A stretch of DNA of 64,000 bases from an uncultured delta proteobacterium (lineage in GTDB: Bacteria; Desulfobacterota; BSN033; UBA1163). The DNA is taken from NCBI GenBank assembly GCA_963806715.1, contig CAWEAV010000033.1, positions 9,501 to 73,500 of the forward strand, given 5' to 3'. The notes beneath the pieces were generated by a model. The model did no database searches and was not told the DNA's origin. It saw nothing but the letters and a program-made list of their open reading frames with translations. Numbering within the stretch: position 1 is the first letter of the stretch; every line of letters starts with the position of its first letter. Of the stretch, positions 546-28,404 are shown one piece after another. A program made the position numbers and the translations under genes.

Positions 546-1547
546 ATGATGAATCCCGTGAAATCTGATTTCCAACAATTCCTCTTTCGTAACCCCCACC
601 CAAATATCCTGATGGGGATGGCGAGTGATCGGTATGCGGGGTGGATTGGGCAGATTTACACGGAGGGACGATATACCAAAGGAATCACTCAGCGAAGCCA
701 CAAGGTGGGAGACAAGACCTTCATCGAAAGGGTCCTGCCTGTAGAGAGCGTTCAGGAGTATTTCGAGCACTTTCCCATTCTTGAAATCGATTATACCTTT
801 TACCGACTGCTGCTTGATCAAGACGGCAAGCCTACCCAGAATTACCACGTCCTCAGGAAATACCGGGAGTATATGACCGAAAAGGACTCCGTTACCCTGA
901 AGGTTCCACAGGTTATTACAGCCCGGAGGTTGAGAAGGGGAGGTACCTCTGTTGAAAGTCAAACCTACCTGAACCCCAAGATTTTAACGGAGCAGTTTTA
1001 CAAACCAGCAATCGAAATCCTTGGGTCTACTCTTGGAGGGTTCATCTTTGAGCAGGAGTACCATCCAAAGAAAAACCGATTCGAACCAGACCAGTTAGCG
1101 AAAGACCTGGATACCTTCTTCAGCGCTATTCCGAAAGACAGCAGGTATCATATCGAGCTCCGTACGGAGGCGTACCTGACGGATCAGGTCTTCGAAATCC
1201 TTGAGAAGCATGGAGTGGGCTTGGTATTCTCCCACTGGACCTGGCTCCCTCCCCTGAAGAAACAGTTCGAGAAGACAGGTAGCCGATTTTACAATTCCGG
1301 GAACCAGTCCATCATCCGTCTCATAACGCCCTTCAGGATGTCTTACGAGGATTCTTATGTAAAGGCCTTTCCATTCGACAAGATGGTGGATGGGATGCTG
1401 AATCCCCAAATGATCGAGGATACAGTCCAGTTAATCAAGGAAGCCATTAGGCGAGAGAAGAAATTTGCCATCATCATCAACAACCGTGCCGGAGGCAACG
1501 GTCCTCTTATCGCACAATCAATCGTCACAAGATTTTTAGCAACATAA
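546..1547 (+). CDS. DUF72 family protein (YecE-like)
   Basis: 333 aa ORF. Motifs IGTSGW-like (GMASDRYAGWIGQIY) and HIELRTEAYLTDQVFEILEKHGVGLVFSHWTWLPPL are typical of DUF72/UPF0759. Confidence 0.7.
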   Translation: MMNPVKSDFQQFLFRNPHPNILMGMASDRYAGWIGQIYTEGRYTKGITQRSHKVGDKTFIERVLPVESVQEYFEHFPILEIDYTFYRLLLDQDGKPTQNYHVLRKYREYMTEKDSVTLKVPQVITARRLRRGGTSVESQTYLNPKILTEQFYKPAIEILGSTLGGFIFEQEYHPKKNRFEPDQLAKDLDTFFSAIPKDSRYHIELRTEAYLTDQVFEILEKHGVGLVFSHWTWLPPLKKQFEKTGSRFYNSGNQSIIRLITPFRMSYEDSYVKAFPFDKMVDGMLNPQMIEDTVQLIKEAIRREKKFAIIINNRAGGNGPLIAQSIVTRFLAT

Positions 1548-1986: not shown

Positions 1987-2336
1987 ACCTCAGGACAGGA
2001 GCCCGCTGAAACATTTCTCTTTGTTTTCACCGCCAAGAGGGAATCTTGCACGTATTTGAACATCCAAATTCTTATAAGAACCCCGAGAAACGGCTGCTCT
2101 CCCCGAGATCGTCCTTTAGCTGGAAAGTTACCTCATTTTACGGTCTTCAATGCTTTATTGCCCTGTTCAAGCTACCTAAGCGGTAACGCCGTTCCACTCC
2201 AACCGCCTTCCAACGGTTACCACTATACCTAAATATTACCCCAATTGAGCGAAAAATGAGTTCTTCAATCAAATATTTCCCTGATGATGAAACCATTAAA
2301 GAGCTTGCAGAGCGCTCTATCAAAATCCCCCTCAAT

Positions 2337-4758
2337 CCCCCTTTACGAAACTGAACGTGTCCCATATGTTAGGGGGCTGGACACAAGGGGAGTAATGTGC
2401 TATAGATAGGTCGTGCGGATATGCGGCCAGGAGTTTAGCGACGAAATTTGTGATCGAATCCGGGCCACCATTGAATCGGAACCGACGATCTCGCGTCGGG
2501 CATTGTCGTTGCGCGTCTGCGAGTGGCTCAACTGGAAGAGCCCCAATGGCAAGCCCAAGGAGATGAGCTGTCGGATGGCCTTGCTGAAGTTGCACCGTGG
2601 GGAGTATCTCTGTCTTCCGGAGCCAGGGGTCCGCAACTGGGCCGTGGTTCAGGGAGAACGGTGTACACTGTCGCTTCCAGAGATTGAGTCGCTTCGCTGC
2701 CGGTTGAAGACGTTGGGAGAGATCAAATTGGTCCTTGTTGAGAACAAGAAGCGCTCTCTCTCCCGTCTGTGGAATGACCTGATGGAGGCGTATCATTATC
2801 TGGGAGCTGGCCCCTTGTGTGGAGCGCAGGTTCGCTATTTGATTGAGAGTTCGGTCTATGGATGGATTGGAGGGTTGGCCTTCAGTGCTGCGGCTTGGCG
2901 AGTGGCCCCCCGGGATCGATGGATTGGGTGGAGCGAACAGGCCCGACAGTCGAATCTGGACAAGGTGGTCTGTAACAGTCGGTTTCTGCTCGTGCCTCGG
3001 GTGGCCCATTTGGCGTCCCACATCCTTTCGCTTTGCGCCCGACGAGTGGTTCAGGATTGGGTGCAGCGTTATGGTGTGCGGCCTATATTGATCGAGACCT
3101 ATGTCGAGCGGGACCGGTTTAAGGGGACCTGTTATCGTGCGGCCAATTGGTGTTATGTAGGAGCGACGCAGGGCCGAGGGCGGATGGACCGGGATCGCAG
3201 GTATTCGGCACCTGTTAAGGACATCTATTTGTACCCTCTTCAAAAGAACGCCCGCAAGGTGCTGTGTGTTGAACCGCCCGCGAAGCCGATCCGGTGCCGA
3301 TCGCAGCAGCCCGGGGCGGGCCGAGACTGGACCGAAGAGGAGTGGGCAGAGGCGCAGATCGGAGATCGCCGGTTGAACAAGAGGCTGCGCACCATTGCCC
3401 AAGCCTTTTACGCGCGGCCTCAGGCCAATATTCCCCAAGCCTGCCAGAGCCGGGCGGAGACAAAAGCCACGTATCGTTTTTTGGATCATCCTGAGACGAG
3501 CATAGAGACGATTCTCGATCCCCATTATCAAGCCACCGTGGCACGGATGAGTCGGGAAGAGGTGATCTTGGCTGTTCAAGACACCACGACGCTCAACTAC
3601 AGCGCCCATCCTGCGACGGAGAACCTCGGGCCGATTGGCTACAGTAAGGATCGAGGCATTGGACTGCTCCTGCATGATACGATGGCGTTTAATCGAGAAG
3701 GGACGCCACTGGGATTGCTCGATGTGCAATGCTGGGCGAGAGACGGGGCGGACTTTGGGAAGAAGAAGTGCCGGCATCGCTTGCCGATCGAGGAGAAGGA
3801 GAGTTTCAAATGGCTGGTCAGTTTTCGCAAGGTTGCCCAGGCACAGAAGCAATGTCCCGCAACGATGCTGGTCAGTGTGGGAGATCGAGAGGCGGATGTG
3901 TATCAGCTTTTTGAATTGGCCTTGAGTGATCCTTTGGGGCCAAAGCTTCTGATACGAGCTGAACAGGATCGGTTGCTTGCGCAAAGTCAAGGGCATCTGT
4001 GGGACAAGATGGCCGAGCAGGAGGTTTCGGGGATCCAGGAGATTCATGTTCCCCGTCACAAGAATCGTCGGGCTCGAGTGGCGCGGCTGGAGGTTCGGTT
4101 TGCAAAGGTTACCTTGAAGTCTCCCAAAAACGAGAAAAGGCGCCGCGAATTGACCCTGTGGGCCGTCTGGGCGCGGGAGGCTGTAGGGTCCACGGAAGCA
4201 GATCGCATTGAGTGGATGCTTCTGAGTACGGTGCCGATCCATACGTTTGCGGAGGCCATCGAGAAATTGGCCTGGTACACGCTCCGTTGGGGGATTGAGG
4301 TTTATCATCGCACCCTGAAGAGTGGATGCAAGGTGGAAGAGCGGCAACTGGGCACTGCTGATCGCATCGAAACGTGCTTGGCCATTGATATGGTGGTGGC
4401 ATGGCGAATTTTTCATTTGGCAAAGCTTGGCCGCGAGACCCCGGATGTGCCTTGTACGGTCTTCTTTGAAGAAGCGGAATGGAAAGCCCTGGTGGCTTAT
4501 ATCACTCAAAATCCGAAACCTCCTGAGACGCCTCCCACTCTTCGAGAGGCCATCGGGATGGTTGGCAGTCTCGGTGGGTTCCTTGGCCGAAACGGCGATG
4601 GCGAACCAGGGACCAAAAGCCTCTGGCTAGGAATCCAACGGCTCGACGATCTATCATCCATGTGGAAACTATTGACTGCAACTGCTCATCCTCCCCCCTC
4701 TCCTTCCCTTGTATCCAGCAACCCAGGTTATGGGTAAGGATCAGTTTACGAAAGGGGG
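2337..4758 (+). mobile_element. IS4-family (Tn5/IS50-like) insertion sequence, GC-rich relative to flanks
   Basis: Imperfect terminal inverted repeats CCCCCTTTACGAAACTGA (2337-2354) and TCAGTTTACGAAAGGGGG (4741-4758) bracket a single 774 aa transposase ORF. GC is about 58% against about 47% in the flanks. I found no clear 9 bp target duplication. Confidence 0.65.
2413..4737 (+). CDS. Tn5-like (IS4 family) DDE transposase with an extra N-terminal domain of about 290 aa
   Basis: C-terminal 480 aa carries Tn5-transposase hallmarks (LAWYTLRWGIEVYHRTLKSGCKVEERQ, IEWMLLST, DDE region). N-terminal 290 aa (MRICGQEFSDEICDRIRATIESEPTISRRALSLRVCEWLNW...) is an extra domain I recall as DUF4338-like. Confidence 0.8.
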   Translation: MRICGQEFSDEICDRIRATIESEPTISRRALSLRVCEWLNWKSPNGKPKEMSCRMALLKLHRGEYLCLPEPGVRNWAVVQGERCTLSLPEIESLRCRLKTLGEIKLVLVENKKRSLSRLWNDLMEAYHYLGAGPLCGAQVRYLIESSVYGWIGGLAFSAAAWRVAPRDRWIGWSEQARQSNLDKVVCNSRFLLVPRVAHLASHILSLCARRVVQDWVQRYGVRPILIETYVERDRFKGTCYRAANWCYVGATQGRGRMDRDRRYSAPVKDIYLYPLQKNARKVLCVEPPAKPIRCRSQQPGAGRDWTEEEWAEAQIGDRRLNKRLRTIAQAFYARPQANIPQACQSRAETKATYRFLDHPETSIETILDPHYQATVARMSREEVILAVQDTTTLNYSAHPATENLGPIGYSKDRGIGLLLHDTMAFNREGTPLGLLDVQCWARDGADFGKKKCRHRLPIEEKESFKWLVSFRKVAQAQKQCPATMLVSVGDREADVYQLFELALSDPLGPKLLIRAEQDRLLAQSQGHLWDKMAEQEVSGIQEIHVPRHKNRRARVARLEVRFAKVTLKSPKNEKRRRELTLWAVWAREAVGSTEADRIEWMLLSTVPIHTFAEAIEKLAWYTLRWGIEVYHRTLKSGCKVEERQLGTADRIETCLAIDMVVAWRIFHLAKLGRETPDVPCTVFFEEAEWKALVAYITQNPKPPETPPTLREAIGMVGSLGGFLGRNGDGEPGTKSLWLGIQRLDDLSSMWKLLTATAHPPPSPSLVSSNPGYG

Positions 4759-6306: not shown

Positions 6307-6852
6307 CTATTCCTTCTTCGCCCGCTTGGCCGCGCTGATCCCTGCCTTGAGGGCTTCGCGGTTCAACCTCTCGGTGCCTTTGGGCACCCGTCCCAGGACC
6401 GCCGTCTCCATCGATTTGGAAGAAACGATCGGGGTCAACTGGGTCAAGGCTCCCAGGGCCACGATGTTGGCCACCATCTCCCTCTTTAATTTTTCCCGGG
6501 CAATGCGCGTAAAGGGGATCCGAAAGACCTTCGACGTGGGGACCTGCTTAACAAAGGTCGAATCGACGATGAGCAATCCACCCGGTTTGAGATCCGAATA
6601 GAATTCGTCGCACGATTTCTGATTCATGGCTAAAAGGAGGTCCAGCTTCATGGCCTTGGGATAGTCGATCTCCTCCTCACTGACGATCACCTCTGCCTTG
6701 CTCGATCCTCCTCTGGCCTCAGGACCATAGCTCTGAGTTTGGGCCACGTACTTCCCCTCATAGATCCCGATGGCTTCTGCCAAGATAATCCCCATGAGGA
6801 TGAGTCCCTGTCCGCCTGAACCACTGAGTCGAATCTCATACCGATCACCCAT
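6307..6852 (-). CDS. korC: 2-oxoacid:ferredoxin oxidoreductase gamma subunit
   Basis: 181 aa; GSGGQGLILMGIILAEAIGIYEGKYVAQTQSYGPEARGG is the POR/KOR gamma signature. Last gene of the 4-gene operon. Confidence 0.85.
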   Translation of the reverse strand: MGDRYEIRLSGSGGQGLILMGIILAEAIGIYEGKYVAQTQSYGPEARGGSSKAEVIVSEEEIDYPKAMKLDLLLAMNQKSCDEFYSDLKPGGLLIVDSTFVKQVPTSKVFRIPFTRIAREKLKREMVANIVALGALTQLTPIVSSKSMETAVLGRVPKGTERLNREALKAGISAAKRAKKE

Positions 6853-6854
6853 CG

Positions 6855-7691
6855 CTATTTCCCTGCACCTCCCTTTGCCCGTTCTCGAATCTTTTCGTAT
6901 TCAATTTGAAATACGGGAAGTTCTTTATCGACCAAGACCCCGATAAGAAGCTGATCCTTCGTCTCCTCGGGCTTCATCGTCACCGCCTTCTCCACGGTCA
7001 ACGCATGATCCCGCTGCCACTCCATCATCTCCACTGCCCCTCCGAGATGGTTCTGCCTTCCATACTGAGTATGGCAATGGGCAATGACTTCGACTACGGA
7101 AAACCCCTGTTTTAGAAAGGCCTTTTCCATCAGGCTGTCCAGGAGCTTCGCATGATAGACCGTCCCTCTTCCGACAAAGACGGCTCCGGCCGTCACCGCC
7201 AACTCCGAAATCCTAAAGGCCTGCTCAATATTCGAATAGATCGTTGTGGTGGACCGCATCCCGTAAGGCGTTGTCGGTGAGTACTGGCCTCCGGTCATCC
7301 CATAGATGCTGTTATTGAGGATGATCGCCGTGACATCAATGTTCCTTCGGGCCGCGTGGATGAAGTGGTTGCCTCCTATGGCAACGGCATCTCCATCCCC
7401 CATGATGACGATCACCTTGAGATTGGGTTTGGCCAGTTTCACCCCTGTGGCAAAAGTCAGTGCCCGTCCGTGGGTCGTATGGAGGGTATTGAAATCGACA
7501 TAAACCGGGAGCCTTCCCGAACACCCAATCCCCGAGACAAGGACGACGTCATCCTTTGCGTAGCCGATTCGATCGATCGCCCGGATGAGAGCGCCCAACA
7601 TGATCCCGATCCCGCATCCGGGACACCAGACATGGGGAAACTTCTTGTCGTGGCGAAGGTATTTATGAATCAGCTTGGTAATTTCAGGCAT
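6855..7691 (-). CDS. korB: 2-oxoacid:ferredoxin oxidoreductase beta subunit (TPP-binding)
   Basis: 278 aa; CPGCGIG...GIGCSGR...IMGDGDAVAIGGNHFIHAARRNIDVTAII TPP motif. Confidence 0.9.
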   Translation of the reverse strand: MPEITKLIHKYLRHDKKFPHVWCPGCGIGIMLGALIRAIDRIGYAKDDVVLVSGIGCSGRLPVYVDFNTLHTTHGRALTFATGVKLAKPNLKVIVIMGDGDAVAIGGNHFIHAARRNIDVTAIILNNSIYGMTGGQYSPTTPYGMRSTTTIYSNIEQAFRISELAVTAGAVFVGRGTVYHAKLLDSLMEKAFLKQGFSVVEVIAHCHTQYGRQNHLGGAVEMMEWQRDHALTVEKAVTMKPEETKDQLLIGVLVDKELPVFQIEYEKIRERAKGGAGK

Positions 7692-8893
7692 CAGGATACC
7701 TCCAGGATCCGATTCAAAATTTCCTCGGGGGTAATGATCGTTCCATCCACCTTATTAAGAGTAAACACCTTGGCCGTGTCCCGGTTCACCCGCTTCACCT
7801 CCCGGGAAACTTGCCCCATGTTCATTTCCGGAACGATCAATGTTTTGGAGGTCTGTAAGATCTTTTCCACGGCCGACCTCATAAAGGGCCAGAGGGTGAT
7901 TAGCTTAAGCAAGCCCACCTTCTTTCCCTTCTCCCTTGCTTCAATCACGGCCCTCTTGGCAGAACGGGCCACACATCCGTAGGCCACAAGGGTGATCTCC
8001 GCATCGTCGGTCAGGAAGAATTCAGCCATCTGGATCTCTGAGAAATTCTGATTGATCTTCCGGAAGAGCCGATTGATGAAAGGACCAATCTCATCGGGTC
8101 TTGAGGTGGGGAATCCTCGAATATCGTGGGTTAATCCTGTCACATGGTATCGATAGCCCTCTCCAAAATTGGCCATGGCTGGAACAGCGCTCGCTGTATC
8201 CTCGTAGGGGATATACCATTCCGGAGGGACCGTGGGTTTAACCCGGTTGATGATCGTCACCTCTTCTTCATCCGACAGGGTCATCTTTTCCCGCATATGA
8301 GCCACAACCTCATCGATCAGGACAATGACCGGGTTCCGGAACTTTTCCGAGAGGTTGAAGGCCTTGATCGTAATTTCATAACATTCCCGGACCGTCGAGG
8401 CAGACAGGACGATGGCCGGATGGTCCCCATGGGTCCCCCACCGCGCCTGCATCACATCGCTCTGGGAGGGATAGGTCGGAAGCCCGGTACTTGGCCCGCC
8501 CCTCATCACATTGACGATGACACAGGGAATTTCAGCGATCACGGCAAAACCAAGATTTTCCTGCATCAGCGAAAAACCCGGACCGCTCGTTGCCGTCATC
8601 GCTTTCACCCCAGCCTGAGAAGCACCAATCACCGCACCCACGCTGGCAATCTCATCTTCCATCTGGATGAAGGTTCCATCTACCTGCGGCAGTTTTACGG
8701 ATAAAATCTCGGAAATCTCTGTGGCGGGAGTAATAGGATATCCTGCAAAAAAACGACAACCTGCCCGAAGCGCCCCTTCAACAATCGCTTCATTGCCCTG
8801 GAGCAACACCTCTCTCTTCTGACTCCGCTTCTTCACCTTTCCCCTCTTTCTTCTTACTCCTTCTGTTCCACGGTGATGGCAAAATCGGGGCAC
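7691..8893 (-). CDS. korA: 2-oxoacid:ferredoxin oxidoreductase alpha subunit
   Basis: 400 aa; LLQGNEAIVEGALRAGCRFFAGYPITPATEI...ATSGPGFSLMQENLGFA. The true start may be an internal GTG, since the annotated N-terminus overlaps the delta subunit. Confidence 0.9.
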   Translation of the reverse strand: MPRFCHHRGTEGVRRKRGKVKKRSQKREVLLQGNEAIVEGALRAGCRFFAGYPITPATEISEILSVKLPQVDGTFIQMEDEIASVGAVIGASQAGVKAMTATSGPGFSLMQENLGFAVIAEIPCVIVNVMRGGPSTGLPTYPSQSDVMQARWGTHGDHPAIVLSASTVRECYEITIKAFNLSEKFRNPVIVLIDEVVAHMREKMTLSDEEEVTIINRVKPTVPPEWYIPYEDTASAVPAMANFGEGYRYHVTGLTHDIRGFPTSRPDEIGPFINRLFRKINQNFSEIQMAEFFLTDDAEITLVAYGCVARSAKRAVIEAREKGKKVGLLKLITLWPFMRSAVEKILQTSKTLIVPEMNMGQVSREVKRVNRDTAKVFTLNKVDGTIITPEEILNRILEVS

Positions 8894-9075
8894 CGGATCT
8901 CACACCATCCACAACGGATACACTTTCCGATATCCTTCACATAGGGGTACCCTGACTCGTCCTTGGCTAAGGCCCCGGTTGGGCAGAAAGCAACACAGAT
9001 CCCGCAGGCCTTGCACCAGGCGCGGTAGATATCGATCTTGGCTTCCTCTCTCTTTTTCTTGGATTCAACTGCCAT
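8854..9075 (-). CDS. korD: 2-oxoacid:ferredoxin oxidoreductase delta subunit (2x[4Fe-4S] ferredoxin)
   Basis: MAVESKK...CKACGICVAFCPTG...CIRCGWCEIRCP gives two CxxCxxCxxxCP motifs. ATG at 9075 has a GAGG RBS. Confidence 0.85.
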   Translation of the reverse strand: MAVESKKKREEAKIDIYRAWCKACGICVAFCPTGALAKDESGYPYVKDIGKCIRCGWCEIRCPDFAITVEQKE

Positions 9076-9201
9076 AAATAACCTCAAGACGTAGATTTCC
9101 GTTCTTATCCCGTCTGAAAACGGAACGACACGGAAACTTCGTTTTCATTTTCATTAATTATTTTCCCCTACTTTAATCATAAGCTAAAATAATGAAACTT
9201 G

Positions 9202-10416
9202 TCAAAAATTTTCAATCAGCGCAGAGGCAAACTCAGAGGACCTTACCTTCCTGGCCCCCTCCATCTGCCGGGCGAGATCATAGGTCACGATTTTCTGACA
9301 GATCGTCTTCTCAAGGGATTGGATGATCTTCTGGGCCACCTCACCCCACTCTAAGTAGTCAAACATCATCGCGCCCGAGAGCAGAAGTGAACCTGGATTG
9401 ATGATATCCTGATTGGCATACTTGGGCGCTGTTCCATGAGTCGCTTCGAAAACTGCAGCTTGGTCTCCAACGTTTGCGCCTGGGGCCATCCCCAAACCTC
9501 CGACCTGGGCGGCCAGGGCGTCCGAGATGTAATCTCCATTCAGATTGGGCATGGCCAAAACCTCATACCCCTCTGGTCTTAAAAGGATCTGCTGAAACAT
9601 GGCATCTGCGATCCGGTCTTTGATCAATAATTTACCAGGAGGAATTTCGCCTTGCCCTGCCTGGCCCAGTTCACTTTCCAAAATGACTTGACCACGAAAT
9701 TCCTCTTTCGCAAGCTCATATCCCCAGTCCCGGAAGGCCCCCTCTGTAAACTTCATGATATTTCCTTTGTGAACGAAGGTAACACTTTTTCTCTCGTGGG
9801 ACAGGGCATATTGGATGGCCCTTCGAACGAGACGCTTTGTTCCAAACCGACTGATGGGCTTAATACCTATTCCGGAGTCTTCCCGGACTTTTTCCCCCAA
9901 CTCCTTCTCAAGAAAGTCTCTTAATCGCAGGGCCTCTTTTGACTCCGCTTTCCACTCAATCCCTGCATAGACGTCCTCTGTATTCTCCCGGAAGACAACC
10001 ATATCCACCTTCTCCGGATGTTTCAAAGGGCTCGGGGTTCCGGGGAAATACCTCACAGGCCGGATGCAGGCATAAAGATCGAGCCTCTGTCGTAAAAGAA
10101 CATTAATGCTTCGAATTCCTCCGCCCACGGGCGTGGTCAGCGGTCCTTTGATCCCAATTTTATATTCTCGAATCGTCTCGATCGTCTCCTCCGGAGCCCA
10201 TTCCCCCTTCAACTGGAAGGCCCTCTCTCCTGCAAAGGTTTCGAGCCACTCGACTCGCCTTTTGTTTCCATAGCACTTTTCAATAGCGGCATCAAAGACC
10301 CGAACAGAGGCCTTCCAGATATCCGGTCCCACTCCATCTCCCTCGATATAGGGAATGATCGGAACATCCGGTACATGCATCTTTCCGTCGGAACGAATCG
10401 CAATCTTCTCACCCAT
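9202..10416 (-). CDS. icd: NADP-dependent isocitrate dehydrogenase
   Basis: 404 aa with strong ICDH similarity ([51 protein letters not shown]). Confidence 0.9.
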
Positions 10417-10524
10417 CGTTTTCTCTCCTCAGATGAATTGCAGCAATCTCGTAGGATCGGTCTCTGTACCGACCCAAGGGATAAGCGCACGGCAAGGGTA
10501 TCGCTTAACCCAGATAATGCTTAA

Positions 10525-10713
10525 ATTTTTACTATACGGACGTGGGCAAGCCGTTCGGAAAGGCTTCAGGGCGAACCTTTCGTGAAAGGAATACTTACGT
10601 CCCAGACCCCTGCCGGAGTTCACATTGAGTGGAGTCCCCCCTTCCCTTAAAATGTCAAATCGACCGCCGTCTGAAGCCTTAAAGAGCGGTTTACCCATGG
10701 CCGTTTCTGCACC
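10525..10713 (-). repeat. Copy A of a roughly 200 nt imperfect-palindromic intergenic element (MITE/ERIC-like or structured leader RNA)
   Basis: Reverse complement aligns along nearly its whole length with 26801-27001 (roughly 80% identity by eye, e.g. GGTTCGCCCTGAAGCCTTTCCGAACGG, AAGGCTTCAGA.GGCGGTCGA, GTGAACTCC.GCAGGGGTCTGGG.CGTAAGT). Lies in the 5' leader of icd, same orientation as the gene. Confidence 0.7.
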
Positions 10714-11241
10714 CATTAAAAGGTGGCTTAAGCCATCAATCTCGATTTCATCACATTTCCCTGGTCCATCCATTTGTGATCTCCCTCGTCTTTAAAAATC
10801 ATAGGAAGAACGCTAGGGTTGGTCAGATTTGCCAAGTCAATGCGGGCAAGTGATTTCATGATCACCACTTAAATCGGGGCGAGAAAAGATTTTGAGCAGG
10901 CCAACAGTCACTTCTCACTTTGACAAACAACAATTCATGAGGTGCCTTCGAAAAAAGCCCTCACTCTGAAACCTGCGGAGATCTCAATAATGAGACATCC
11001 CCGAGGATCTGTCTTTATTTCATCCGGATTTCCCCGATAGTTGCTTAATTTTCGCGGACAGGTAGGCTTTCAAACCCTTAAAACGCGGTCTTTTTTGATT
11101 ATTTTCGGGTTCATTCCCAATTTCACCAAAGCGGAAGTCCAGGAAGTATGGAATCTCATCAGTCAATCAACCTGTCATAGGATTCCGCTTTAATGGTTTT
11201 CAGCCCACCTGTCCGCTCTCCATGGGATGGTTTTTGCAACA

Positions 11242-12111: not shown

Positions 12112-12613
12112 CCCTCAAGACAACAAACCTGATCATCACATAAAAGCACTTCCAAGCATACCATTAGAATTCATGGGATGGTTGGGAAAGAAACCAATCT
12201 CACCCCAGGAGGTGCCCTATGACCGCATTATATGAAGGTCATCTCATGGTATCTCTCCTTGTAGCCATAACTGTAGCACACTATAAGGTAGTCACCTTAT
12301 TCTGTCAAGCCAAACAGGGGTTCAAATTCTCTATTCTTTTGACCCCGGCCCCAGGTGATCTAGGAATGGTCTTAATGACTTGCGGGTCTTCAATGAAGCT
12401 GATGACCCGCATGATTCCTCGACACTTCAGACAGAAGAAGAATGGTTGGAGTTGATCTGCTAAGGGTTGTAGAACGGATGGGACACAAGACGATTCAGGT
12501 CGTGCTGACGGAACCGAAGGCAGGCAGCTAATACCTGCAAGGCCTGAAAGTTCATACGCAAGCCCGCAGGCAGCGCTCCAAACCGGCAAGCAGCCCTATT
12601 TCGCAGGATTGTG

Positions 12614-13858
12614 CTATGGCGCCAGAAAGTAGTTACGGCAGGCCTGGGCCACAGCCTCGCGATCCAGGCAGGGCTCCTTCTGCCGATAGTGAGCTCCCCA
12701 GAGGACCTTTTGCAGGATGTCCCGCGGGTAGCAGGCTCGCAACGACTCCTTGTAATCCTGACCGATCATCTGGATCAGGCTATCCACCACGGCCGCATCG
12801 TACCTGAGGTTGAACTGGAAGCAGACACGCCGGAAGATCGCACGGAACTGTTCGGAAGTGACAAAGTCCACCTTGATCTTGGTCTGGATGCGGCGCAGGA
12901 AAGCTTCGTCCGCCAGCTTGGTGGGATCCAGGTTGGTGGAGAAAATAACGAAGAGGTCGAAGGGTATCTCGATCTTCTTGCCGCCCGCCAGGTTGAGGAA
13001 GTCGATCCGGCGGTCCAAGGGAACCACCCAGCGGTTGAGAAGTTCCTCAGGGCTGATGCGCTGTCGCCCGAAGTCATCTACGATCAGCAGGCCGTTGTTG
13101 GCCTTCATCTGCACCGGTCCGGAATAGAACTTGGTGATGGGGTTAAACTGCAAATCGAGCATCTCGATGGTCAGCTCGCCGCCCACCATCACACGCGGTC
13201 GACGGCACAGTACCCAGCGGCCATCTTGATCTTGGTCTGCAGGCTGCTCCACCCTCTGGTGAAGAACCGAGTCATAAACCGTGATGATCTGGCCGTCCAC
13301 TTCCACCGCGTAAGGAAGCAACACTTGGTCACGATCAAAGAGCCGGGGAAGCGTCTCGGCGATGGAAGTCTTGCCCGTCCCTGTCGGCCCGTAGAGGAAA
13401 ATCGAGTGGCCCGAAAGCACCGCAGTACCAAGCTCGTCCAGAATCTGGGTGTCGAGCACCAGGTGTTCGAAGGCGCGGGTCATCTCCCTGGGGGTGATCA
13501 TAATGCCGCGGACGCTCTGGGCGCGGACGCGGCTGATGTAGTCATCCAGGGATACGGGCGCGGGGCCGGCATACTGGCTCTGGGCCAGCAGTTCCAGCGC
13601 CCGTGACCTTCCCCCTGATGTGGTGGTGATGCGGTGTACGCTCCCGACCATGCCGGTGACTTGACAGAGTTGGTCCTTGCGTAGACGTTGGAACAATTCC
13701 TCCACCATGCCTAAGCTGAGCCCCATGTGGCGGGCCAGTTCGTGAACCGACATCTCACCCACCAGATAGAGGATCTTGAGTGCAAGGTCTTCGAGAAGGT
13801 TTCTGCGAACTCCAATTTCCTTGAAGGACCTGGATACCGAAAGCATTGTGGTTGCCAT
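12614..13858 (-). CDS. AAA+ ATPase with N-terminal winged-HTH-like region (MoxR/AAA_5-like core)
   Basis: 414 aa; Walker A LYGPTGTGKTS, Walker B LLIVDDFGRQ, FVIFSTNLDP sensor region. Gene GC is about 60%, well above the neighbours. Divergent from the ExeA-like gene. Confidence 0.6.
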   Translation of the reverse strand: MATTMLSVSRSFKEIGVRRNLLEDLALKILYLVGEMSVHELARHMGLSLGMVEELFQRLRKDQLCQVTGMVGSVHRITTTSGGRSRALELLAQSQYAGPAPVSLDDYISRVRAQSVRGIMITPREMTRAFEHLVLDTQILDELGTAVLSGHSIFLYGPTGTGKTSIAETLPRLFDRDQVLLPYAVEVDGQIITVYDSVLHQRVEQPADQDQDGRWVLCRRPRVMVGGELTIEMLDLQFNPITKFYSGPVQMKANNGLLIVDDFGRQRISPEELLNRWVVPLDRRIDFLNLAGGKKIEIPFDLFVIFSTNLDPTKLADEAFLRRIQTKIKVDFVTSEQFRAIFRRVCFQFNLRYDAAVVDSLIQMIGQDYKESLRACYPRDILQKVLWGAHYRQKEPCLDREAVAQACRNYFLAP

Positions 13859-18841: not shown

Positions 18842-19510
18842 CTATATTACAGCCCTTTTAAGCTGTTTTTCAAAAAATCCGATCGCCTTTTCTACCGGAA
18901 ACCAGCCGGCTCGCTGGAGATGCCTGTTGACAGACTGTTGGGTAATCGCAGGTTTCCACAGGCTCCCGATTTCCTCCTGCTTCAAGCCCTGCAATGCGCC
19001 GGTTATGGCAAGAGCTTGTTTATCACTCCAGTTCATTGCCAATACGTCCAGAAGGTGAACCAGAACATCGAGAGATTCTTCAATCTCCCGCTCAGGAAAT
19101 CTAAAGCACATATTGCTTGCCTTTGTCATTTCCTCCAGGGCTTTACCTGAATACCGATACGCCTGCCCATCCCCGCCGGAAACACGATCATCCGGAACAA
19201 AATCAACTGTCCCGATTGCGATCGCCATACGGGTATCTATCTTGCTTGCCGCCGCTGCTGCTCGCAAAAACGCCCTGTAAAACAACCCGATTCTCAACGA
19301 CACCGCGGGATCAGCCACCAACAACTGCCAGGAGTCTCCTCTGAAAACATCCACATCCAGCGGAATGCTCTCTTTAAAAACCTTACGAAGAACCTTTGAC
19401 CCATCTTTCATGTTACGGTGAAGCCTTTGCCGCTCCTCGACTGATAATTTCGAAGAATCCACAATATCTCCCGTAACGACCGCGTAAGGCTTTCCTTTCT
19501 CAATCTTCAT
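18842..19510 (-). CDS. SatD-like protein with nucleotide-cyclase (Palm) type metal-binding motifs
   Basis: 222 aa; YAVVTGDIVDSSKL resembles the class III cyclase beta1 motif FADIVGFT, and VFRGDSWQLLVADP resembles KTIGDAYMAVFGAP. Start codon overlaps the upstream gene stop (ATGA). Confidence 0.5.
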   Translation of the reverse strand: MKIEKGKPYAVVTGDIVDSSKLSVEERQRLHRNMKDGSKVLRKVFKESIPLDVDVFRGDSWQLLVADPAVSLRIGLFYRAFLRAAAAASKIDTRMAIAIGTVDFVPDDRVSGGDGQAYRYSGKALEEMTKASNMCFRFPEREIEESLDVLVHLLDVLAMNWSDKQALAITGALQGLKQEEIGSLWKPAITQQSVNRHLQRAGWFPVEKAIGFFEKQLKRAVI

Positions 19511-20031
19511 TTTATCCTTCTCCGTCCCTTCTTCGGAGTTAATGCCTTTTCCTCGAATAGATTCTCAAGGCCGTGGGCGATGGCAAAGGATTTGTTGGTC
19601 TTGCATTTCTCCTTCACCCTTTCAGGCCAATATTCCATGGCCTGTTGAGCCCAGTCATATTTCTCTTCCTCAAGCTCCTTCCCAGGCCATTCTTGTTTCC
19701 GGCAGGTATATTCCTCGAACGTGTTCTGCGGAAATTCTAACCGGTAAATGCCTCCAGCTGCCTCGAACCTTAGCCAGCCATGCTGGTGGGACTCCATGAA
19801 AAGACGCTCAACATTTGTCTCTCTGAGCAAGAATAACTTCCAATCGGGGTGTCGAATCATGTCTCGGCCAATCACTCCCAGGTCGTTAAGACAAAACCCA
19901 ATTAGGGCAAAGGCTTCAAGAGCAAGATGAAAGGGGGTAATATGTTTCCGGACGCCCCTTCGAGAATCCCAAAATCCCGCAGCCCAGCAAGGAGACCTCG
20001 GGCCACCTTTCGTTGTACGGTAGGAGTCCAT
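19507..20031 (-). CDS. Hypothetical protein (start likely internal; annotated N-terminus overlaps the upstream gene)
   Basis: 174 aa ORF overlapping the 190 aa ORF by about 130 nt. The real start is possibly MIRHPDW or MESHQHG. No recognised domain. Confidence 0.35.
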   Translation of the reverse strand: MDSYRTTKGGPRSPCWAAGFWDSRRGVRKHITPFHLALEAFALIGFCLNDLGVIGRDMIRHPDWKLFLLRETNVERLFMESHQHGWLRFEAAGGIYRLEFPQNTFEEYTCRKQEWPGKELEEEKYDWAQQAMEYWPERVKEKCKTNKSFAIAHGLENLFEEKALTPKKGRRRIK

Positions 20032-20474
20032 TCCTTCTTAACTCCATGAAGCTTTCTGGATAACCAACTTATGACTTCTCCAACACGAATTTCCCGGTCG
20101 GGATGCCCGGCTCGGTGGAAAACCTCCTCTGTAACAAAAGCATATAGCAAGGGCTCTGCCCTCGCCGTGATCCAGTAATAGAAAGCGCGAATAATTTCGA
20201 TATCAGCAGTTGAAACCTCCAGAGTCCGGGCTAACTTCCAGGCATTGGGTGGGGATCCATGAATGAATCGAGGGCGGAATGCACGGGTATAGGTATCTCT
20301 TACACGGGCGAGGGTCATTTTGGAAAGAACCGCAAGTGCAGATTTGGGGGAATTGGCCTTGGTCAGCTCCTCAGACCAATTTGAAACGAGCAGCCGCATG
20401 TCCCCAAGGAGCGCCCCACCTTTTGCGAGTCGGCTGGTGAATTCTACTGCTCCTTGTGCATTTTGTCTATCCAT
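19902..20474 (-). CDS. Hypothetical protein, about 190 aa
   Basis: Helical; no family confidently recognised (vague resemblance to small BREX-associated BrxA-like proteins, not supportable from sequence alone). Confidence 0.4.
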   Translation of the reverse strand: MDRQNAQGAVEFTSRLAKGGALLGDMRLLVSNWSEELTKANSPKSALAVLSKMTLARVRDTYTRAFRPRFIHGSPPNAWKLARTLEVSTADIEIIRAFYYWITARAEPLLYAFVTEEVFHRAGHPDREIRVGEVISWLSRKLHGVKKEWTPTVQRKVARGLLAGLRDFGILEGASGNILPPFILLLKPLP

Positions 20475-24969: not shown

Positions 24970-25043
24970 TGGCTGGGGGACGAGGGTTCGAACCTCGGTT
25001 GATGGAGTCAGAGTCCATAGTCCTGCCACTAGACGATCCCCCA
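24970..25043 (-). tRNA. tRNA-Gln (anticodon CUG)
   Basis: Reverse complement TGGGGGATCGTCTAGTGGCAGGACTATGGACTCTGACTCCATCAACCGAGGTTCGAACCCTCGTCCCCCAGCCA folds as a cloverleaf. Acceptor 7 bp; anticodon stem ATGGA/TCCAT with loop CUCUGAC; T-arm CGAGG-TTCGAAC-CCTCG; encoded CCA. Confidence 0.85.
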
Positions 25044-25380
25044 GTAAGCCTTGTAACTTGTAAGTGGTAAGAAGGTGTAAAAAAAATGGGAACCTGTGCC
25101 TCGGCCCGTATGGACGGGCGTCTCGTCCAACCTTATACGATGCGGGTCATCGGATGTTATGGGTAGCGGTCCTTTCCGGTAAATCGAGCGATTAAGCAGG
25201 GATAGACCGTGCAGATCAATTTTAGAGGTTCTGCCCTAAAGCTTCTCCAATCCGCCCATCCATGCAAGCCGAAATCCCGCCAACGCGGGACCCATCCGGG
25301 AAATGTGATTTTTTCACACCTTCTGAGTCATTAGGGGCCTGAAAAAACGAAAATAATCATAGCATTGTCCACCTAAATGA

Positions 25381-26640: not shown

Positions 26641-26800
26641 GCAATCGTTCCTTATGTTTTCTCATTGGTAGTCCCCCATTTTGGAGGCGGTTACAGGTAA
26701 GTCGGCACTGAATCCCGACGCTACAAAATTTATCCTATCCGGTTCCAAAAGTCAAAACGTTGATTATTAAGGCATTTTAAGATAATCTGTGTCAACCCCG

Positions 26801-27001
26801 TAGTTGCAGAAACGGGCATGGGTAAACCGCCCTTCAAGGCTTCAGAAGGCGGTCGAATTGATATTTTGAGGGTATGGGAGGAGATCACCCAAGGTGAACT
26901 CCAGCAGGGGTCTGGGGCGTAAGTGCTCCTTACAATAAAGGTTCGCCCTGAAGCCTTTCCGAACGGTTCACCCATGCCCGTATGGTAAAATGTTCTGCAA
27001 C
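26801..27001 (+). repeat. Copy B of the roughly 200 nt imperfect-palindromic element; intact terminal inverted repeats
   Basis: Termini GTTGCAGAAACGGGCATGGGTAAACCG ... CGGTTCACCCATGCCCGTATGGTAAAATGTTCTGCAAC are inverted repeats. Internal AAGGCTTCAG/CTGAAGCCTT pairing. Lies in the 5' leader of the phosphomutase gene, same orientation. Confidence 0.7.
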
Positions 27002-27036
27002 ATTAAGGTCAAGTAACGTTATGAGGAGAAGAAGCT

Positions 27037-28404
27037 ATGGAGATCAATCCGCTCATCTTTCGTGAATACGATATCCGGGGTGTGGTTAATCAGGATCTGA
27101 CGCCTGATATCGCTCGAAAATTGGGACGCGGGTTCGGAACCCATATGGTCTATCTGGGGTTGAAAAATCTCGTCGTCGGAAGGGACGGAAGGCTCAGTTC
27201 AAATGCCTATGGAGAAGCACTGATTGAGGGGGTTACTTCCACAGGATGTCATGTGGCTGATATTGGCCTTTGTCCAACTCCTGTCTATTATTTCTCTCTC
27301 TTTCATTTGAACAAAGACGGCGGAATGATGGTGACGGGAAGTCACAATCCGCCTGAATTTAACGGGTTCAAAATATCGGTGGGAAAAAGTACCATCTTTG
27401 GAGAAGAAATCCAGAAGCTGAGAAGGCGGATTCAAAAAGAGGAATTCGTCATAGGCAAGGGGTCTCTTTCAAGACATGAAATCATCCAACCTTATCAGGA
27501 GTTTGTGAGGAAGAATATAGAGCTAAAAAGGAAGCTGAAGGTGGTGATCGATGCTGGGAACGGTACCGCTGGAATTGTGGCAGGGCCACTCCTTCGAGAT
27601 TTGGGATGCGAGGTAGAGGAGCTATACTGTAAAGTGGATGGCCGTTTTCCTAACCATTTTCCTGACCCCACCATCCCTGATTATTTGAAGGATCTCATCC
27701 ATCACGTTAAAGCATCCGAGGCTGATGTGGGAATTGGTTATGATGGCGATGGGGATCGCATCGGTGTTGTAGATGATCAAGGGGACATCATCTGGGGTGA
27801 TCAGTTGATGATTCTCTTTGCCCGGGAGATTCTGAAGGAGAGGAAAGGAGCCACCTTCGTGGCTGAGGTAAAATGTTCTCAGAACTTATATCAGGAAATC
27901 GAAAGGCAGGGTGGAAAAGCCATTATGTGGAAGACGGGGCATTCCCTCATTAAAGAAAAGATGAGGGAAGTAGATGCTGTTCTTGGTGGGGAAATGAGCG
28001 GCCATATCTTCTTTGCGGATCGATACTTCGGCTATGACGATGCCATTTATGCTTCGTGCCGCCTCTTAGAACTCCTCTCCAATACAGAAAAGAAATTATC
28101 TCAACTTTTTCTTGATGTGCCCAAAACCGTGATCACCCCAGAGATTCGGGTCGAATGTCCGGATGAGACCAAATTTAAGGTGGTTGAAGAAGTGCGAGAT
28201 GAACTGAGAAGAGACTATCCCATCATTGACATGGACGGGGTAAGGGTGAAATTTGAGGATGGGTGGGGATTGGTGAGGGCCTCAAATACCCAACCTGTGC
28301 TGGTTCTGAGATTTGAGGCTTCGACCGAAAAGCGGCTTGATGAGATCAGGCGGCTCGTTGAGGATAAGGTGAAATCTGCAGTTCTATCCTCAGGGAGTCG
28401 TTGA
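27037..28404 (+). CDS. Phosphomannomutase/phosphoglucomutase (alpha-D-phosphohexomutase family)
   Basis: 455 aa; active-site TGSHNPPEFNGFK, metal loop GYDGDGDR, sugar-binding GGEMSGH. Confidence 0.9.
   Translation: MEINPLIFREYDIRGVVNQDLTPDIARKLGRGFGTHMVYLGLKNLVVGRDGRLSSNAYGEALIEGVTSTGCHVADIGLCPTPVYYFSLFHLNKDGGMMVTGSHNPPEFNGFKISVGKSTIFGEEIQKLRRRIQKEEFVIGKGSLSRHEIIQPYQEFVRKNIELKRKLKVVIDAGNGTAGIVAGPLLRDLGCEVEELYCKVDGRFPNHFPDPTIPDYLKDLIHHVKASEADVGIGYDGDGDRIGVVDDQGDIIWGDQLMILFAREILKERKGATFVAEVKCSQNLYQEIERQGGKAIMWKTGHSLIKEKMREVDAVLGGEMSGHIFFADRYFGYDDAIYASCRLLELLSNTEKKLSQLFLDVPKTVITPEIRVECPDETKFKVVEEVRDELRRDYPIIDMDGVRVKFEDGWGLVRASNTQPVLVLRFEASTEKRLDEIRRLVEDKVKSAVLSSGSR

Follow-up and report, generated by a model that had tools for sequence, protein, structure and literature searches.

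A probable small non-coding DNA transposon inserted upstream of icd and pmm in an uncultured, presumably thermodesulfobacterial genome

The window, that is, the whole 64-kb stretch of DNA that was analysed, contains two copies of a short repeat element. Copy A is located in the 5' leader of the isocitrate dehydrogenase gene (icd) and copy B in that of a phosphomannomutase/phosphoglucomutase gene (pmm) (Table 1). The distance from the end of the element to the start codon is 92 nt for icd (ATG at 10416) and 28 nt for pmm (ATG at 27037), and each copy has the same orientation as the gene that it precedes, in agreement with an earlier note on this DNA, which had placed both copies co-oriented with and upstream of a gene start. 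Genes for 2-oxoacid:ferredoxin oxidoreductase with POR_N/PFOR_II domains follow downstream of icd on the minus strand, icd and these genes together spanning window 6855-10416, and a tRNA gene is found on the minus strand between the two copies (24973-25043; 57 bits, Rfam). The icd protein has a 100% identical entry in the database. The closest homologues of icd and pmm carry the source names Thermodesulfobacteriota bacterium and Deltaproteobacteria bacterium RBG_13_47_9 and RBG_16_47_11, and judging from these names the host probably belongs to an uncultured lineage of the Thermodesulfobacteriota ('Deltaproteobacteria' RBG-type).

In a blastn comparison, copy A (10527-10711, minus strand) and copy B (26805-27003, plus strand) are 85% identical over 186 nt (E = 7e-56). 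They can be aligned end to end over about 190-200 nt, as had been reported, with a mean column identity of 83% when the flanks are included. A profile of the family built for nhmmer covers 10506-10716 for copy A (E = 6e-66) and 26794-27011 for copy B (E = 6e-73). The elements are therefore present where the earlier note had located them, but its limits were slightly too narrow and left out the CCC.../...GGG tips and the target duplications. Neither blastn, nor the nhmmer family profile, nor a search for the terminal inverted repeats (TIRs) with 3 mismatches detects a third copy within the 64-kb window. A very weak match to the family profile at 25221-25265 (E = 0.034) is probably due to chance.

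Table 1. Coordinates of the two element copies, of their parts and of the neighbouring genes in the window.
Feature	Position	Strand	Basis
Copy B (probable MITE), 213 nt, full length	26796..27008	+	sequence; ends from 51-copy alignment
Copy B left target-site duplication, TCAA	26792..26795	+	single TCAA in relative L087
Copy B right target-site duplication, TCAA	27009..27012	+	single TCAA in relative L087
Copy B 5' inverted-repeat arm (GTTGCAGAA + ACGGGCATGGGTAAACCGCCCTTCAAGGCTTCAG)	26803..26845	+	inverted-repeat search; fold
Copy B 3' inverted-repeat arm	26948..27001	+	inverted-repeat search; fold
Copy A (probable MITE), 219 nt	10509..10727	-	sequence; junctions fixed by L085 empty site
Copy A upstream target-site duplication, TTAA (minus-strand reading)	10728..10731	-	sequence; L085 empty site
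Copy A downstream target-site duplication, TTAA	10505..10508	-	sequence; L085 empty site
icd (isocitrate dehydrogenase), neighbour outside the element	9202..10416	-	Pfam Iso_dh, E = 8e-90
pmm (phosphomannomutase/phosphoglucomutase), outside the element	27037..28404	+	Pfam PGM_PMM domains I-IV

The inverted repeats that had been claimed for copy B consist of an outer pair, GTTGCAGAA/TTCTGCAAC, of 9 nt with 100% complementarity and an inner pair, ACGGGCATGGGTAAACCGCCCTTCAAGGCTTCAG/CTGAAGCCTTTCCGAACGGTTCACCCATGCCCGT, of 34 nt with 82% complementarity. An additional spacer of about 11 nt, ATGGTAAAATG, separates the inner from the outer repeat in the 3' arm, and the order of the whole copy is 5'-CCCCGTAGTTGCAGAAACGGGCATGGGTAAACCGC...GGTTCACCCATGCCCGT...TTCTGCAACATTAAGG-3'. 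Both copies produce a long imperfect hairpin on folding. The fold of copy B as RNA reaches -89.3 kcal/mol, with a z score of -5.5 against shuffled sequence. The arms of copy A are 76% complementary to each other, and its fold is no better than those of shuffles (z = -1.2). Throughout the family, the TIRs are imperfect, extend over about 45 bp and start with CCCCGyrGTTGCAnAAACGGnCATGGGTAAACCGC, and they enclose an asymmetric core of about 90 bp; the G+C content of the element is about 50%. The tips CCCCGyrG.../...CrTCTGGG are common to copies across the family. The mean pairwise identity of the copies is 80%, and conservation is highest in the inner arms (0.92-0.97), including the 3' arm, which lies outside the search pattern, intermediate in the core (0.84-0.89) and lowest in the extreme tips (0.72). 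Such a distribution is distinct from that of many families of prokaryotic miniature transposons (MITEs), in which the termini are the best-conserved part.

Copy A had been described as decayed. Its weaker self-complementarity agrees with this description, but its other peculiarities do not: a 9-nt insertion, TTTTAATGG, in its 5' repeat is also present in copy L002, and its variant of the 3' arm, GGCTTGCCCACGTCCGT, is shared with L075, L007 and L067. Because both of them occur in other copies, the apparent decay of copy A is largely a trait of its subfamily, and by its sequence copy A is assigned to a divergent subfamily with the 9-nt insertion. No reading frame stays open across 41 copies of the element, which bears out the view that the ORFs at 10429-10773 and 26730-26975 are artefacts.

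Further copies and target duplications had been proposed as a check on the element, and both are found. A scan with the core pattern, in which each GTDB species was represented by one genome, gave one true copy only (L002), in the MAG MFD00709.bin.2.5, labelled 'uncultured delta proteobacterium', between a gene for an HD-GYP response regulator and a ccsA-like gene. A second scan, in which a different 19-mer of the element was compared with JGI metagenome contigs, matched 82 contigs, about 74 of which carry full or partial copies and 8 of which are chance matches as judged by blastn and nhmmer. The metagenome copies are 72-92% identical to copy B. The long matches (at least 150 nt aligned) number 64, the two window copies included, and represent 56 distinct insertion sites. 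The flanking genes are mutually unrelated and encode, among others, an iron-containing alcohol dehydrogenase (Fe-ADH), a LuxR-type regulator, SelA, glycosyltransferases, an oxidoreductase, ABC and TctC periplasmic binding proteins and CcsA. Two or three copies are found within a few kb on some contigs (L076/L014, L059, L052). Internally deleted derivatives of about 125 nt that keep both termini are present in L056 and L082, and one-ended remnants in L060, L076 and L052. In L007 and L051, which represent different loci, an identical GC-rich palindrome is nested within the 5' repeat, which indicates the amplification of a variant master copy.

The orientation of the copies relative to their neighbouring genes is biased. 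In tandem gene pairs, 16 copies are co-oriented with the genes and 4 are opposite (p = 0.012). Relative to the upstream neighbour (ORF of at least 110 aa) the numbers are 28 and 11 (p = 0.0095), and relative to a downstream neighbour of at least 200 aa they are 23 and 7 (p = 0.005), with the gene calls behind all these counts being ORF-length heuristics. The remaining contexts comprise 3 convergent and 4 divergent ones. The co-orientation of about 3:1 is real and family-wide, though not absolute, and this family-wide bias accounts for the fact that both window copies face their downstream gene.

To read the ends of the element and the duplications, 51 distinct copies were aligned together with the 60 nt that flank them at either end. 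In these copies, similarity drops sharply beyond 5'-CCCCGyrGTTGCA... and ...TGCAAyATCTGGG-3'. Immediately outside are tetranucleotides that match across the two sides of each copy and vary between copies, such as TTAA, TTTA, TCTA, TTGA, TCAA, ATAA and TTTT. The target is thus a T-rich 4-bp sequence, most often TTAA or TTTA. In fixed alignment columns, the flanks match perfectly (4/4) in 25 of the 51 copies, compared with 7.2% when the left flank of one copy is paired with the right flank of another (binomial p = 1e-15), and several more copies show the duplication once the alignment is shifted by 1 nt. Flank repeats of other lengths match seldom or not at all, and those of 5-8 nt are found in none of the 51 copies. 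The TAA stop codon of the upstream gene often lies within the duplicated TTAA (for example in L006/L040, L036, L044 and L083), and at such stop codons the element begins no more than 6 nt past the ORF. The preference for a T/A-rich target may by itself explain these insertions at stop codons.

The duplications bear directly on whether the element could be of the REP/BIME or IS200/IS605 type, that is, a palindromic element (PATE) moved by a Y1 (HUH) transposase. The element is indeed palindromic, intergenic and often located directly after stop codons, and an orientation bias would fit strand-specific single-strand transposition. However, elements of the REP and IS200/IS605 type are short hairpins that are not known to have a target duplication or TIRs, whereas exact 4-bp duplications and repeats of about 45 bp are seen here, and a length of about 213 bp far exceeds that of REP sequences. 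Because target duplications are present, the element is not placed with the REP or IS200/IS605 types, and among the readings weighed in this study an origin of this kind is the most improbable. The location of several copies after co-oriented ORFs of about 390-400 aa also raised the idea of a TnpB/omega-RNA system. It was rejected, since these ORFs belong to housekeeping genes that have no relation to one another, and because of the target duplications.

Relatives of the host provide empty sites for both insertions. In the JGI contig L085, the icd protein is 98% identical to that of the window and the DNA is 96.5% identical on both sides of the insertion. The icd leader of L085 reads ...TTGCTGGG TTAA GCGATACC..., with a single TTAA and without the element; a second reading of the same empty site is ...GAAATCGATTGCTGGG TTAA GCGATACCCTTGCC.... 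The element is also absent from L086, in which icd is 87% identical and a gene for aconitase lies 121 nt upstream of icd. At the pmm locus, L087 (pmm protein 93% identical) has the site ...CTGTG TCAA TTGACGTTATGAGGAG... with a single TCAA and no element, the left flank before TCAA being also given as AAGATATTCTGTG, and L088 and L089 (82-85% identity) lack the element upstream of pmm as well, again with a single TCAA. The empty sites also argue against a reading in which the 4-bp flanks belong to a conserved motif and are not duplicated target. Because these icd and pmm sites are empty, both window insertions are recent, and icd and pmm function without the element. L087 carries a copy of its own on the opposite strand immediately downstream of pmm (1428-1543), where the window has none, so that L087 and the window show a reciprocal insertion polymorphism around pmm. 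The presence and absence of the element between genomes that are 96.5% identical at the icd locus indicate that the family has been active recently, and its copies therefore offer strain-level markers.

The empty sites also decide against the alternative raised in the earlier note, a structured cis-regulatory RNA. As such an RNA, the element would be a riboswitch or leader within the 5' UTRs of both genes that senses a metabolite or a protein and controls central-carbon genes. The sense orientation of both window copies just upstream of a gene start would suit such an RNA, as would the strong fold of copy B (z = -5.5), the high conservation of the inner arms and of parts of the core and the family-wide 3:1 sense bias. 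However, the same leaders are empty in relatives, at icd in L085 and L086 and at pmm in L087-L089, even with icd flanks that are 96.5% identical and a pmm protein that is 93% identical, and the fold of copy A does not exceed that of shuffles. The neighbours at the 56 sites are unrelated and include 3 convergent intergenic and 4 tandem-antisense contexts, and an RNA-motif model has no place for 4-bp target duplications. A scan for known RNA families and an RNAalifold analysis over the copies had been proposed earlier, and neither supports an RNA. With Rfam 15 at the gathering threshold, the whole window yields only a tRNA, and with E values up to 10 the two copies yield only sub-threshold noise (RsaE at E = 0.33 as the best, AS-traI and a snoRNA). 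RNAalifold of 41 clean copies retains the inner stems only (consensus -21 kcal/mol), with double-sided changes in 2 of 34 pairs, in 3-4 sequences each; such changes are also expected if subfamilies keep both terminal repeats alike. Because of the empty sites, the varied contexts and the minimal covariation, the cis-regulatory RNA is rejected; it is very improbable, if slightly less so than an element of the REP or IS200/IS605 type.

The element is most simply described as a non-coding, non-autonomous DNA transposon (MITE) of about 213 bp that belongs to uncultured Thermodesulfobacteriota, a reading to which we assign a probability of roughly 0.93. At the level of sequence, it shows every property of a MITE bar a partner insertion sequence (IS): the copies of the window are 213 and 219 bp long with no frame open across 41 copies; TIRs are present, as the 9- and 34-nt arms of copy B and as tips common to the copies; an exact target duplication of fixed length, 4 bp, is seen in 25 of 51 copies; copies are dispersed over 56 distinct sites at non-homologous loci; and filled sites contrast with empty ones at icd (L085) and at pmm (L087, L088, L089). 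Of the earlier designation 'MITE/ERIC-like', the MITE part is supported by the TIRs, the 4-bp duplications, the 56 sites, the deletion derivatives and the empty sites, whereas the ERIC part is not.

Mechanistically, the element would be moved in trans by a DDE-type transposase of an IS with matching ends, and the cut of this transposase would be staggered by 4 bp. Each copy in the window would have inserted downstream of the likely promoter and upstream of the ribosome-binding site of its neighbouring gene, and in the transcript of icd or pmm it would form a long hairpin within the 5' leader. The co-orientation with the genes would then reflect selection against the opposite orientation and not a regulatory role. 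Duplications of 4 bp are produced by, among other IS families, the IS5 group, IS701, IS1380 and the IS407 group of IS3. A partner IS is found neither in the window, by a TIR search with 3 mismatches and Pfam analysis of 16 window ORFs, nor among the solo or partial profile matches in the fetched loci, nor in two scans of viral contigs, a blastn search of plasmids and a concatenated six-frame peptide search. L086 carries a gene for an IS110-family transposase at 19025-20068 (DEDD_Tnp_IS110 and Transposase_20 domains). Because IS110 elements are not known to make such repeats or duplications, this transposase is unlikely to be the mobiliser.

Prokaryotic MITEs are non-autonomous derivatives of DDE insertion sequences. 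The element resembles them in its small size, lack of coding capacity, TIRs, fixed-length duplication and many dispersed intergenic copies, as well as in its presence/absence polymorphism, its internally deleted derivatives and the stable hairpin that it forms when transcribed. It differs from them in that conservation is lower at the tips than in the inner arms and in the orientation bias of about 3:1 relative to neighbouring genes. A text search for a published MITE of the host lineage gave nothing relevant, and the family appears to be undescribed. A counterpart from a comparable host is Chunjie (Chen et al. 2008), the MITE found in Geobacter uraniireducens Rf4, for which the summaries in PMC3184786 and PMC10969869 give a length of 178-235 bp, a fold of about -100 kcal/mol, variation in copy size and tolerance inside operons, and those in PMC3184786 give 21-bp terminal repeats, 9-bp direct repeats and A+T richness. 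The 'deltaproteobacterial' host, the similar size, the fold energy, the size variation and the tolerance inside operons are thus shared, but the element of this study has repeats of about 45 bp, a 4-bp duplication and about 50% G+C. Because the repeats, the length of the duplication and the base composition differ, Chunjie and this element are different families, and identity with Chunjie is ruled out by the lengths of the repeats and of the duplication. Correia elements of Neisseria (CREE/NEMIS), which are MITEs co-transcribed as long hairpins and which duplicate TA, are set apart by their description, that is, by their size, by the TA duplication and by a different host phylum, and they are not expected to resemble the element in sequence. 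Their size is listed as about 104-157 bp in Table 1 of PMC3184786, and the same source describes ERIC elements as enterobacterial and about 127 bp long. ERIC/IRU elements of the Enterobacteriaceae are also imperfect palindromes in transcribed intergenic regions, but by their description they differ in size and host.

The orientation bias of about 3:1 is not predicted by simple cut-and-paste insertion, and an extra assumption, selection, is therefore needed. It may be that the transcribed hairpin is selected against in one of its two orientations, as the bias suggests. A block upstream of pmm, TTGATT-N12-TAAGATAAT, is kept in L087-L089, and copy B is located directly after it. Because this conserved block is probably a promoter, transcription probably runs through copy B and yields a 5'-leader hairpin. 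A promoter scan places a sigma-70-like site about 70 nt upstream of copy A. These arrangements raise the question of whether the MITE has been co-opted and alters the expression of icd and pmm, either through an RNA hairpin that acts in one orientation, for example by RNase III processing or by an effect on mRNA stability, or through an outward promoter, in which case the extended -10 sequence TGGTAAAAT near the 3' end of copy B would drive the downstream gene. Co-option would agree with the bias itself (16 versus 4, p = 0.012; 23 versus 7, p = 0.005), with the uneven conservation that peaks in the inner arms (0.92-0.97) and with the expected transcription of copy B, and the Correia elements of Neisseria provide a precedent for effects at the RNA level. 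However, scans for promoters and terminators in the sense orientation reveal nothing convincing inside copies A and B, relatives do without the element, and the bias depends on gene calls made from ORF length. In the antisense orientation a strong stem is directly followed by U3-5, and the antisense element might, at a guess, act as a terminator; when the T residues that follow the strong stem are crudely counted, the two orientations do not differ clearly. Co-option that alters icd or pmm expression is considered unlikely. A little more doubtful still is the view that the family is more than neutral cargo and that its transcribed hairpin has a function in one orientation, either as an RNA of the 5' UTR or between cistrons that is processed or stabilising, or by carrying an outward promoter. 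If co-option were true, recent insertions such as those at icd and pmm would rewire how central-carbon and sugar-nucleotide genes are expressed, so that strains of an abundant sediment/wetland lineage of the Thermodesulfobacteriota would differ in this respect while being nearly identical otherwise. Functions of MITEs are treated in the review PMC10969869.

The feature is real but ordinary, being a MITE and not a conserved regulatory RNA. Its recognition explains two spurious ORFs and removes a false riboswitch candidate from the annotation. With the profile and the exact ends, a repeat that is widespread in metagenomes from freshwater sediment, wetland and peat can be masked. Such repeats probably also break assemblies, because many copies are located at contig ends. 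The 4-bp T-rich target and the terminal sequence offer a handle for finding the transposase, and the orientation bias poses a small question on the tolerance of transcribed MITE hairpins.

Several minor observations concern the copies and their surroundings. The nested palindrome in the 5' terminal repeat of L007 (about 1318-1360, minus strand) and L051 (about 100-165) has the sequence CCTGCGTkGCCGAAACGCCrCTyCGGCGTGCAGG, is about 34-38 nt long and has a CATG repeated on its two sides. Either it marks a subfamily or it may itself be mobile, as another palindrome of much smaller size. In L076, a full copy, a one-ended remnant and a diverged copy lie within 6.5 kb (798-859, 2111-2323 and 6336-6489; L076 and L014 represent one locus) in a glycosyltransferase-rich cluster, and all three are oriented as the genes are. 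Elsewhere in the window, there are two cases in which a long ORF is overlapped almost entirely by another on the opposite strand: 2332-4509 (minus) with 2413-4737 (plus), of 725 and 774 aa, and 12611-13606 (plus) with 12614-13858 (minus), of 331 and 414 aa, the 414-aa ORF showing only weak AAA-ATPase matches. The icd-oxidoreductase cluster constitutes a TCA or reverse-TCA gene block. In the relatives, the 2-oxoacid:ferredoxin oxidoreductase genes include a TPP_enzyme_C subunit, and in both L085 and L086 a small ferredoxin gene separates icd from the genes for the oxidoreductase. In L086 (5559-14140), aconitase and a flavoprotein/Fe-S pair precede the icd cluster, and the upstream synteny differs from that of the window.
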